From: a virus
Lineage: Duplodnaviria; Heunggongvirae; Uroviricota; Caudoviricetes
Strand: one strand, 5' to 3'
DNA length: 13,854 bases
IMG/VR virus record: IMGVR_UViG_2585427748_000003
Position 1 is the first letter of the stretch; each line of letters opens with the position of its first letter. The notes below the pieces were generated by a model, which worked only from the letters and a program-made list of their open reading frames with translations, was not told where the DNA came from and made no database searches. Shown here in pieces: positions 2,525 through 13,854 of the stretch. A program made the position numbers and the translations under genes.

Positions 2525-2884
2525 TTACCCCTCATTGTTATTAATCTTTTGCAATAAATCTGCAAAACTCTTTAGCTGTTCCGGCGTAAACTGCGACTTA
2601 GCGAATCCCGCTACAAGCATTTTCTGTTGCTGAGACAAACCGTTTACTGGAACTGAGTCATTCGCAACTGCCGCTAGCTCCTGTAACCCTTCAATTTCTA
2701 CACCTTTGGCCTTGAAGTAAGAATCAATCTTCTTAACCCACTTCAGAGGTATTTTTTTGCTACCAGTTTCTAAACCGCTAAGAAACGCTGGCGTAGTGCC
2801 CAGTTCTTGAGACATAGTCAGAAGAGTACTGTCAGTATCGATCCTCGCTTTTCTAACGGCCTTACCGAATTCAGTGAGTGCCAT
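2525..2884 (-). CDS. XRE-family helix-turn-helix transcriptional regulator (ImmR-like partner)
   Basis: 119-aa ORF; N-terminal region fits the Cro/C1-type HTH pattern (..STLLTMSQELGTTPAFLSGLETG..). GAGGA SD 8 nt upstream of the ATG at 2884. Confidence 0.8.
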   Translation of the reverse strand: MALTEFGKAVRKARIDTDSTLLTMSQELGTTPAFLSGLETGSKKIPLKWVKKIDSYFKAKGVEIEGLQELAAVANDSVPVNGLSQQQKMLVAGFAKSQFTPEQLKSFADLLQKINNNEG

Positions 2885-3029
2885 GATTTTATCCTCAATT
2901 TGTTGATTTAGCAGACTTGCCTAACGCAAGCCTGATGGGCGCTTAAATTCTAATTCCTAAAATTTACCATATACGAAAGCAAAGTAAACCTTTTTAGTTA
3001 AAAAAATCTCCTTTAAGGGAATTTTTTTC

Positions 3030-3060
3030 ACAAAAAGAACAAAACCCGCCGAAGCGGGTT
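3030..3060 (-). terminator. Intrinsic terminator for leftward (minus-strand) transcription from the small-gene/hok operon
   Basis: Minus strand reads AACCCGC-TTCG-GCGGGTT followed by TTTTGTTCTTTTTGTG. Copy 2 of the 23-bp exact repeat (3038-3060). Confidence 0.6.
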
Positions 3061-3128: not shown

Positions 3129-3284
3129 TTACTCCTCAGGTTCGTAAGCTGTGAAGACAGCGACCTCCGTCTGGCCGGTTCGGATTCGTACCTCGCAGAG
3201 GTCTTTCCTCGTTACCAGTGCCGTCACAATGACGGTTAAACAGATGACGATCAGGGCGATTAGCATCGCCTTTTGCTGCTTCAT
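3129..3284 (-). CDS. hok: Hok/Gef-family type I toxin (small membrane peptide, 51 aa)
   Basis: Translation MKQQKAMLIALIVICLTVIVTALVTRKDLCEVRIRTGQTEVAVFTAYEPEE has the Hok/Gef hallmark (hydrophobic helix followed by conserved ..RKxLCEVxIRxGxxEVAxFxAYE..). AAGGAG SD 9 nt upstream. An in-frame upstream ATG at 3341 gives the track's 70-aa frame; whether that is a mok-like reading frame I cannot tell. Confidence 0.8.
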   Translation of the reverse strand: MKQQKAMLIALIVICLTVIVTALVTRKDLCEVRIRTGQTEVAVFTAYEPEE

Positions 3285-3329
3285 AGCCTGCTTCTCCTTG
3301 CCTTTCGGCACGTAAGAGGCTAACCTACG

Positions 3330-3400
3330 TGTGTAGAGCATAGATATGGCCTCAGATTAATGTTAAGCGTCTTGCCGGACGCGTAATGTTAACTGGGGCT
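3330..3400 (+). ncRNA. sok: Predicted Sok-like antisense RNA opposite the hok leader/upstream start region (approximate)
   Basis: By analogy with hok/sok loci only. Candidate plus-strand promoter TTGCCT (3298-3303), 17-bp spacer, TAACCT (3321-3326). No clear terminator found; boundaries are guesses. Confidence 0.2.
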
Positions 3401-3575
3401 TTTCTCTATCTGCCTTTTGGTGTTCATGCCTGAGACAGATAGCCTCAAGCACCCGCTGCAATTCTACTTAACTCTCCTTTTCCCGCAAACCGTTTTTATC
3501 CCCAGCGGCAAATCGAATACACCACCAGCGCCACCGCCATCGCAATTCCTACCGTTGTTAATGCTTCAGGCCAGG

Positions 3576-9076: not shown

Positions 9077-9328
9077 CGCTGCAACGCCCTCTGTTATCAA
9101 TTTTCTGGTGACGTTTGGCGGTATCAGTTTTACTCCGTGACTGCTCTGCCGCCCTTTTTAAAGTGAATTTTGTGATGTGGTGAATGCGGCTGAGCGCACG
9201 CGGAACAGTTAAAACCAAAAACAGTGTTATGGGTGGATTCTCTGTATCCGGCGTTAATTGTTAACTGGTTAACGTCACCTGGAGGCACCAGGCACCGCAT
9301 CACAAAATTCATTGTTGAGGACGCGATA

Positions 9329-12333: not shown

Positions 12334-12582
12334 ATGGCAAGACTTATTCTGCTCACTGAGTGGGCAAAAGAGGAATTCAGTGAACCGGTCCCTACTCCGG
12401 GCACGTTAAGTAAATACGCTAAAGCCGGAATGATATTTCCTCTCCCCAAAAAAGTTGGAAGACGCTGGCGAGTGGATCCGCAAGCTCGCTTTGTCGGAAT
12501 GGTAAACAAGCCGGAGGTGATCGCCACAGATCACCCTGCTTTGAAGAGGATACTGGAAGATGGCGCGCCCGCGAAAATATAA
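12334..12582 (+). CDS. xis: Excisionase-like protein (lambdoid prophage Xis family)
   Basis: 82-aa basic protein directly upstream of int, overlapping it by 23 bp, as is usual for xis-int pairs; no convincing SD. Confidence 0.6.
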   Translation: MARLILLTEWAKEEFSEPVPTPGTLSKYAKAGMIFPLPKKVGRRWRVDPQARFVGMVNKPEVIATDHPALKRILEDGAPAKI

Positions 12583-13690
12583 AACCGATGTTCCGGGATT
12601 ATCTCCGTATTTTGACAAAAGAAATAACAAAGTTTACTGGCGTTACAGGCATCCCATAACAGGCAAAAATCACGGTCTCGGCAGTATTGACCAGAAACTG
12701 GCGGAAACCATTGCAGCAGAAGCGAACAGCCGTCTTGCCAGACAACAAATGGAGCAAATGCTCAGTCTGCAGGAGAAAATTATTAATGATACCGGCGGTT
12801 CATCAACCGTTTCCATTTTTCTGAATAATTACAGAAAAATTCAACAGGAAAGATATGAAAACGGAGAAATCAAACTCAACACGCTGAAACAGAAAGCGGC
12901 CCCTCTCAGGGTTTTTGATGAACGTTTTGGCACCAGACCGTTAGATGCCATAACCGTAAAGGATGTGGTATCGGTGCTGGAAGAGTACAAGTCCAGAGGA
13001 CATAACAGAATGGGACAAATTTTCAGGAAGGTACTGATCGATGTTTTCCGGGAGGCTCAGCAAACGGGCGATGCCCCGCCAGGCTTTAATCCTGCAGAAT
13101 CGGCAAAAAAACCACAGGTGCGGATATCAAGACAGCGACTGACTTTTGATGAGTGGACGATGATTTATAACGCAGCGGAAAAGGATGGTTACTTTTTACA
13201 GCGCGGTATGCTGCTGGCACTGATGACAGGCCAGCGCCTTTCAGATATTTGCAAAATGCAATTTTCGGATATCCGGGATGGTTATCTTCATGTCGAACAG
13301 CAAAAAACAGGAACCCGGATTGCCATCCCTCTGGCTCTGCGTTGCGATAAATTAAATCTCACCCTGGATGATGTGGTGTCATCCTGTCGCGATTGCGTTC
13401 TTAGTCCGTGGCTATTGCACCATCATCACGCGAAAGGGACAGCTAAGCGCGGCGGGATGGTTAAGCCAGCAACGTTAACCGTTGCATTTAAAAAAGCGCG
13501 GGATTCTGTGGATTACAACTGGCGTGCTAATGGCACCCCACCCTCTTTCCATGAGCAGAGATCTTTATCAGAGCGATTGTTCAGAGAGCAGGGAATTGAT
13601 ACCCAAATTTTGCTGGGTCATTCGAATCAAAAAATGACCGATATTTACAACGATGCACGCGGCAAGGAGTGGAAAAAACTGGTCATTTGA
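12560..13690 (+). CDS. int: Lambda-family tyrosine integrase
   Basis: 376-aa ORF with lambda Int-like architecture and catalytic-region blocks (..LALMTGQRLSDICKMQFSDIRDGYLHVEQQKTGTRIAIP.., ..PPSFHEQRSLSERLF.., ..LLGHSNQKMTDIYNDARGKEWKKLVI); GAGGA SD. Confidence 0.9.
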   Translation: MARPRKYKTDVPGLSPYFDKRNNKVYWRYRHPITGKNHGLGSIDQKLAETIAAEANSRLARQQMEQMLSLQEKIINDTGGSSTVSIFLNNYRKIQQERYENGEIKLNTLKQKAAPLRVFDERFGTRPLDAITVKDVVSVLEEYKSRGHNRMGQIFRKVLIDVFREAQQTGDAPPGFNPAESAKKPQVRISRQRLTFDEWTMIYNAAEKDGYFLQRGMLLALMTGQRLSDICKMQFSDIRDGYLHVEQQKTGTRIAIPLALRCDKLNLTLDDVVSSCRDCVLSPWLLHHHHAKGTAKRGGMVKPATLTVAFKKARDSVDYNWRANGTPPSFHEQRSLSERLFREQGIDTQILLGHSNQKMTDIYNDARGKEWKKLVI

Positions 13691-13696
13691 TGACCA

Positions 13697-13731
13697 GTTT
13701 TGCAGAGGAGTTTTGCAGAGATTTTGCAGAG
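13697..13731. repeat. Three tandem copies of a 10-bp core TTTTGCAGAG between the int stop and the ompW stop; candidate Int arm-type or accessory binding sites
   Basis: Cores at 13698-13707, 13711-13720 and 13722-13731 (periods 13 and 11 bp). Confidence 0.55.
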
Positions 13732-13735
13732 AAAA

Positions 13736-13854
13736 TTAAAAGCGGTACCCGGCAGAGAACATAAACACCCACGGATCCAGTCGTACCGAGTCTTTCACGG
13801 TATTAACACCAGATTTATACTTAGCCGTGGTATCGATATCCATGTACCACACTG
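13736..13854 (-). CDS. ompW: 3' end of an ompW-like outer-membrane protein gene (last about 38 codons; continues right of the window)
   Basis: Minus-strand translation ..VWYMDIDTTAKYKSGVNTVKDSVRLDPWVFMFSAGYRF* ends in the aromatic C-terminus typical of beta-barrel OMPs and matches my memory of the OmpW C-terminus; the middle segment differs from the E. coli K-12 sequence as I recall it. Confidence 0.65.
   Translation of the reverse strand, partial: VWYMDIDTTAKYKSGVNTVKDSVRLDPWVFMFSAGYRF

Follow-up and report, generated by a model that had tools for sequence, protein, structure and literature searches.

Three tandem repeats between int and ompW as candidate arm-type integrase sites at the junction of a PPompW-type prophage

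Results

Gene content of the right end of the window

The window (the whole 13,854-nt stretch of viral DNA analysed) closes with two overlapping phage genes on the plus strand, followed by three short direct repeats and by the 3′ end of an ompW gene on the minus strand. The features considered here, in window coordinates, are as follows.

12334..12582, plus strand: excisionase gene xis, overlapping the start of int
12560..13690, plus strand: tyrosine integrase gene int, 376 aa
13675..13701, unstranded: perfect 12-bp inverted repeat (AAAACTGGTCAT ttg ATGACCAGTTTT) from a repeat search, spanning the int stop codon
13698..13707, plus strand: repeat copy 1, nearest int, TTTTGCAGAG, candidate P′ arm-type Int site
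13711..13720, plus strand: repeat copy 2, TTTTGCAGAG, candidate P′ arm-type Int site
13722..13731, plus strand: repeat copy 3, nearest ompW, TTTTGCAGAG, candidate P′ arm-type Int site
13736..13826, minus strand: phage-borne 3′ end of ompW, last 30 codons plus stop, from the attL/attR/attB alignment; C-terminal stretch ...DPWVFMFSAGYRF
13827..13854, unstranded: att core, a 28-bp block identical in attL, attR and attB, reading CAGTGTGGTACATGGATATCGATACCAC in ompW orientation

The excisionase gene was recognized by a Pfam Exc match (PF07825, E = 2.1e-07) and is annotated as an excisionase in NC_009801.1. The integrase, whose TGA stop codon is at 13688-13690, carries an N-terminal lambda-type arm-binding domain (Arm-DNA-bind_1, PF09003, residues 2-71, E = 8.5e-22) and a catalytic domain (Phage_integrase, PF00589, E = 4.1e-17). 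Its identity is 50% with phage 21 Int and with IntE of e14, and 36% with lambda Int. The catalytic residues of lambda Int are R, K, HxxR, H and Y, and the motifs TGQR, KTG, HEQR (HxxR), LLGH and DIY (C-terminal Y) are aligned between the two proteins.

Translation of the minus strand from 13852 to a stop codon at 13736-13738 gives VWYMDIDTTAKYKSGVNTVKDSVRLDPWVFMFSAGYRF, the OmpW-like C-terminus that the first-pass annotation had described next to the int stop. In the source genome the complete open reading frame encodes a full-length protein of 212 aa, and its match to the Pfam OmpW profile is complete (1-195 of 195, E = 8.9e-81). Both annotation and Pfam thus identify the fragment as ompW, leaving no room for the concern that it might come from another outer membrane protein gene. 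The suspicion that its middle residues depart from those of K-12 was also correct: seven positions differ (TTAKYKSGVNTVKDSV here vs TTANYKLGGAQQHDSV in K-12), all of them between two conserved C-terminal stretches.

The att core and its source locus

The last 455 bases of the window are 100% identical to Escherichia coli E24377A (NC_009801.1), in which a full-length ompW converges with a gene annotated as an 'Arm DNA-binding domain' integrase, followed by an excisionase gene and a lambdoid prophage. A pseudogene annotated 'OmpW family, missing N-terminus' lies next to yciE, ~30.6 kb from the int-side ompW. As the first-pass annotation had advised, both ends of the prophage (attL and attR) were compared with an uninterrupted ompW, in a three-way alignment with the empty K-12 locus (attB). 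K-12 attB corresponds to attL on the left and to attR on the right of one 28-bp block. Since this block alone is identical across the three sequences, strand exchange must fall inside 13827-13854, and 13691-13826 is therefore phage DNA, i.e. the P′ arm. Recombination takes place inside this 28-bp core, within ompW codons. Read directly from the sequence, the core holds the inverted hexamers GTGGTA and TACCAC with 12 bp between them.

At the far end of the prophage, attR carries the identical core together with the original ompW 3′ end and its terminator, and the OmpW C-terminus on the int side must accordingly have been supplied by the phage. The segment 13736-13826 differs both from K-12 and from the displaced attR copy, which likewise indicates that it arrived with the phage. 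Because the P′ arm replaces the last 30 codons, a full-length 212-aa OmpW is still encoded. With an intact int-side ORF, a displaced 3′ fragment and an empty allele made up of the two outer junction halves, the insertion is of the 3′-end-replacing type known from icd, e14 and phage 21. Integration into the 3′ end of ompW with a phage-supplied replacement C-terminus, first proposed from the window alone, is thus borne out at both prophage ends. A search of 5426 complete E. coli genomes recovered the int-ompW junction in 1729.

The right edge of the window, 13854, is the outer limit of the core, and the host part of ompW lies beyond it; that the window stops exactly at the core edge suggests that it was cut at a predicted prophage boundary. 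Elsewhere in the window, Rfam matches were obtained for DicF sRNA (9103-9154, plus strand, 76.7 bits) and sok antitoxin RNA (3279-3454, minus strand, 117.1 bits), and dicB and hokD are annotated in the same prophage regions of the source genome; all four are ordinary cargo of Qin/Rac-like lambdoid prophages. An Rfam search of 13691-13854 returned no known RNA family. In E24377A the prophage has a truncated major capsid gene (positions 26402-26845 of the retrieved stretch), a partial portal gene and several other pseudogenes. It is probably defective, as are the PPompW elements described in PMC8112680, and since its capsid and portal genes are partial, its att sites may be out of use in E24377A.

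Relationship to the PPompW prophages

Prophages at this locus have been described as the PPompW elements of STEC and EPEC (Nakamura et al. 2021, PLoS Pathog 17:e1009073, PMC8112680; GenBank LC567818-LC567841), and further papers from a full-text search mention ompW in connection with prophage integration sites. The element studied here occupies the same site in ompW, its Int is 98% identical at the protein level, DNA identity across int and the junction is 96.6%, and it shares the three repeats and the hairpin; by integrase and att site it belongs to this family. In the PPompW records, a 121-bp 'duplication due to insertion' is annotated at either end, in the same place as here. In PMC8112680 the whole of this imperfect duplication is taken as the att sequence and the term 'arm-type' is not used; identity between attL and attR is limited to the 28-bp block. 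The E24377A element differs from the PPompW prophages in being shorter (~30.6 kb vs ~44 kb), in its P-arm flank, which has no homology beyond −135, and in one residue of the phage-borne OmpW loop (N in E24377A vs T). A match to phage P-EibA was considered as a second ompW-carrying phage and set aside; its ompW-type sequence lies near the end of a partial prophage record and is read as a probable host remnant at attR.

The tandem repeats travel with the integrase

Between the int and ompW stop codons, three tandem cores had been reported by the first-pass annotation, and all three were located at the positions given above. The first begins 8 nt past the int stop and the start-to-start spacings are 13 and 11 nt. 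In the entire 13.85-kb window, TTTTGCAGAG occurs exactly three times and allowing one mismatch adds just one match; three exact 10-mers in 34 bp, with a single extra one-mismatch match in 13.85 kb, are not attributable to chance.

An uninterrupted ompW followed by the same repeats would make them host sequence. In K-12, the empty ompW is instead followed by unrelated sequence with a hairpin of its own (GACCCCGTAATATACGGGGTC), and for every sampled genome that lacks the integrase the match begins at query position 173-175, just past the third repeat, so that none of them has the repeats. Judged from these alignments, the repeats are phage sequence. Their bases are conserved from one E. coli PPompW element to another, and the bases of the spacers vary. 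The junction of E. coli MDP9-27 has two of the three repeats owing to an 11-bp deletion (positions 439-461 of the retrieved stretch), and also carries a long-loop ompW cassette.

Three integrases 65-69% identical to that of the window, from Kluyvera, Raoultella and another Enterobacteriaceae genome, are each followed directly by three copies of TTTTGCAGRR at the 13/11 spacing; the triple lies beside the 3′ end of ompW in two of these and beside an unrelated 74-aa ORF in the other. A scan of viral contigs found 59 with the triple next to int, although the scan pattern imposed both the triple and its spacing and so cannot show how often the spacing varies. Wherever such contigs extend far enough upstream, the triple closely follows the end of an int ORF. 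On its downstream side there are at least six contexts, including ompW, an icd 3′ end (Pfam Iso_dh), a full-length ushA-like 5′-nucleotidase gene, a porin gene, the 74-aa ORF and several without assignment. The repeats therefore appear to travel with int and not with ompW, being co-inherited whatever the target site.

A less favourable account would make the repeats host sequence or a functionless product of replication slippage, with the outer membrane protein fragment unrelated to the phage junction. Short tandem repeats can indeed arise by slippage, and one strain has lost a copy; yet the repeats are missing from K-12 attB and the sampled integrase-free genomes, the ORF is a full-length OmpW, and repeat number, spacing and sequence are conserved at several unrelated sites beside integrases with N-terminal domains as little as 47% identical. 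The chance that this account is correct appears negligible.

Identity of the N-terminal domain to that of the window Int is 47-66% in the phages that use the motif, vs 46-51% in phage 21 and e14, and since this does not separate the two groups, co-variation of protein and site is a weak test. A few residues of the domain correlate with the motif (PGLS vs PNLY, and HGLG vs HSLG or HALG).

Two further arrangements were seen among the elements carrying the motif. In 11 viral contigs with the TTTTGCAGRR triple, the neighbouring porin gene stops at position 176 of 337 of the Pfam Porin_1 profile, and this subgroup appears to interrupt its target gene midway instead of rebuilding it. In Escherichia albertii NBRC 107761 (positions 2638-3042 of the retrieved stretch), a PPompW-type int is followed by the hairpin, the repeats and a phage-borne ompW end that continues in frame into another ORF, the break falling at the core edge (...ATARDWVRQLP followed directly by VWYMDID...). 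The fused ORF looks like rlmC (23S rRNA methyltransferase) and not like ompW, and the case resembles a secondary-site insertion disrupting this rlmC-like gene.

A hairpin across the int stop codon

The perfect inverted repeat at the end of int has arms at 13675-13686 and 13690-13701, flanked by an A-run upstream and a T-run downstream, and so forms a hairpin followed by a U-run on both strands. Its predicted folding energy is −15.7 kcal/mol on the plus strand (z = −3.4) and −17 kcal/mol on the minus strand (z = −5.0). When the A/U-run pairs are discounted, a stem of 8 bp is left, followed by UUUU (plus strand) or UUUUUU (minus strand). In DG343-1 both bases of one pair have changed, C-G to T-A, and the stem persists; it likewise persists despite other changes in the relatives with 65%-identical Int. 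A consensus terminator scan of 13300-13854 made no call, the hairpin included, probably as a result of the T-run pairing within the stem. From its structure and position, the hairpin is a probable bidirectional intrinsic terminator, serving int on the plus strand and the rebuilt ompW on the minus strand.

It had been suggested that the repeats could be either arm-type Int sites or a substitute for a transcription terminator, and the second of these was weighed here as a replacement terminator for ompW or int formed by the repeats themselves, in place of protein-binding sites. Their location between two convergent stop codons does call for a terminator, the host ompW/yciE hairpin has been displaced to attR, and the TTTT of the first repeat doubles as the tail of the adjacent hairpin. 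These last four T's are, however, the whole of the overlap between the two elements. The repeats are direct and have no dyad symmetry, and a fold of the ompW-sense RNA leaves them essentially unpaired while the neighbouring 12-bp hairpin forms. The same triple occurs in other gene contexts and in more distant phages that have no hairpin at the int stop, and the phage 21 record annotates a terminator and three sites as separate features. A terminator made of the repeats is thus extremely improbable; it is the hairpin that fits this role, and the arm-type reading that agrees with the relatives, with the presence of the motif on both arms and with the layout of phage 21 and e14.

Layout of both arms compared with phage 21, e14 and lambda

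The closest parallels to the arrangement at ompW were found in two elements with a different target gene, icd.

Element; target gene; P′ motif (host-gene orientation); spacing (nt); P-arm copy
This prophage; ompW; CTCTGCAAAA; 11, 13; −130
e14; icd; TTATCAAAA; 11, 13; −127
Phage 21; icd; TTCCCCAAAA; 12, 13; −128

Each has a copy of the host-gene 3′ end, then three tandem sites ending in CAAAA before the int stop; the P arm has one copy, at about −128, with an IHF-like site after it, and attR retains the displaced 3′ part of the host gene as a pseudogene. Phage 21 was compared through the annotation of its GenBank record, OL657228, and through sequence; this record labels 'attP 3 subsites' (P1P2P3, consensus YYTTCCCCAAAA), placed between the icd-like copy and the stop codon of int. 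In phage 21 the terminator separates the gene copy from the sites, whereas in the ompW element the hairpin is on the far side of the sites, across the int stop. In e14 of K-12, three copies of TTATCAAAA follow just after the rebuilt icd and a terminator (positions 1444-1476 of the retrieved stretch) and a fourth lies 127 bp before icdC (positions 16287-16295); unlike here, int is not adjacent to the junction. The primary study of the phage 21 and e14 arm sites is reportedly that of Wang, Yang and Campbell, from about 1997.

The P arm of the ompW element was read at the far prophage end in E24377A and in an O145 PPompW prophage. Both have one further copy of the motif (TTTTGCAGAA or TTTTGCAGGA) in the same orientation at −130 to −121 from the core, matching TTTTGCAGRR at 10 of 10 positions in two independent prophages. 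Homology between the two P arms starts exactly at this copy, and farther out they are unrelated. The copy is followed by an IHF-like site, which as a consensus match is exact in O145 (AATCAATCAGTTA, against the consensus WATCAANNNNTTR) and has one mismatch in E24377A (AATCAGGCAGTTA). Taking the P-arm site, core, ompW 3′ copy and three P′ sites together, the functional attP would extend over ~300 bp.

Similarities with lambda extend from the integrase, with its arm-binding domain and aligned catalytic residues, to the positions of the sites. Three tandem sites abut the int stop in lambda as well, as read from the lambda sequence against the arm-site consensus. Measured from the core centre, lambda P1 occupies about −148 to −129 and the P-arm copy here −144 to −135. 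At +110 to +142, the P′ sites are farther from the core than in lambda because the arm also carries 91 nt of ompW. Lambda differs in having an unrelated arm motif, in having two P-arm sites vs the one recognizable here, and in integrating between gal and bio, where no coding sequence is supplied.

Binding of the repeats by another phage or host protein, such as excisionase, a CII-like activator acting on TTGC repeats or some other regulator, was also considered. TTGC is present in every copy, lambda CII recognizes TTGC-N6-TTGC (consensus quoted in the phage 21 record), and direct repeats at roughly helical spacing would suit many DNA-binding proteins. In the present repeats, however, the TTGC spacings are N7 and N9, and they are conserved as such; CII-type sites were rejected on this ground. 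The sites of phage 21 (TTCCCCAAAA) and e14 (TTATCAAAA) occupy the same position and are without TTGC, and those of phage 21 are labelled attP subsites. A single matching copy at the outer edge of the P arm is what bridging by Int predicts. The Xis sites of lambda, moreover, are in the P arm and not in the int-side arm. A protein other than Int is thus a very unlikely occupant of the repeats.

Since the layout is homologous to that of phage 21, e14 and lambda despite the different motif, the repeats are most likely the arm-type Int sites P′1-P′3; we infer this assignment from position, conservation and homology. The system combines what characterizes a heterobivalent integrase, namely N-terminal arm-binding and catalytic domains, arm repeats on both arms, a shared core and sites co-inherited with int. 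Taken together, these data make it very probable that 13691-13854 is the integrase-side junction (attL) of a ~30.6-kb PPompW-type lambdoid prophage in the 3′ part of ompW, with the repeats as its P′1-P′3 arm-type sites. A literature full-text search with the motif in both orientations returned unrelated papers only, among the matches listed.

A variable segment in the phage-borne ompW end

Mean nucleotide identity among E. coli PPompW elements was not uniform along the junction.

Segment; mean nucleotide identity
int 3′ end (300 nt); 94%
Hairpin and repeats; 96%
C-terminal stretch segment (...DPWVFMFSAGYRF); 91%
Core; 99%
Loop-coding segment (~51 nt between the conserved stretches); 74% (minimum 59%)

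The phage-borne loop occurs in at least five protein variants, one of which has five extra residues through a 5-codon insertion. Host ompW copies look uniform in the sample, with the exception of E. coli G749 (positions 705-1358 of the retrieved stretch), which has a prophage-free 217-aa ompW allele with a longer, divergent loop (…TEVKYKSNGAVLPAGRYSDNVRL…). This allele is directly beside trpA, and yciE, yciF and yciG are therefore missing. In E. coli KCJ3K291 (positions 703-1453 of the retrieved stretch), a 3′ remnant of ompW is all that is left of the gene next to yciE, abutting an IS5-like element, ISKpn26; the strain apparently has a disrupted ompW.

Given the known eight-stranded barrel, the exchanged stretch is presumably the last extracellular loop of OmpW. 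Colicin S4 uses OmpW as its receptor, and there are phages that depend on OmpW (PMC2649078, PMC10132071). The insertion might then amount to a surface conversion, in which a hypervariable phage cassette replaces the OmpW loop and alters sensitivity to colicin S4 and to OmpW-dependent phages; we consider this unlikely. Alternatively, the phage cassettes may merely sample the natural diversity of ompW alleles; a natural long-loop host allele does exist in G749. The G749 host loop resembles the long phage-borne cassette, which hints at exchange between phage cassettes and host alleles. Were surface conversion to hold, a phage-edited OmpW would be present in roughly one in three complete E. coli genomes.

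Discussion

The prophage family and the textbook mechanism by which it integrates are already known. The new details are the 28-bp exchange block, the TTTTGCAGRR motif across target genes, the hairpin at the int stop and the hypervariable loop cassette. In the proposed mechanism, the adjacent Int would dock on the P′1-P′3 repeats through its N-terminal arm-binding domain. Together with the P-arm copy and the IHF-like site, the repeats would allow Int, within integrative and excisive complexes, to connect the arms with the core in the manner of lambda, phage 21 and e14. The hairpin would replace the host terminator left behind at attR and end the transcripts of both int and the rebuilt ompW.

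These findings leave the current understanding of site-specific recombination unchanged, and their main value is for annotation. The true boundary of the prophage is fixed, and the region of exchange is narrowed to 28 bp within the 121-bp imperfect duplication. In about a third of complete E. coli genomes, the gene annotated as ompW is a host-phage chimera. Three copies of TTTTGCAGRR at 13/11 spacing right after int provide a signature for the integrase-side end of this enterobacterial prophage group, whatever the target gene. The group also illustrates the modular evolution of integrases, with the same arm sites accompanying different core specificities (ompW, icd, ushA-like and porin).
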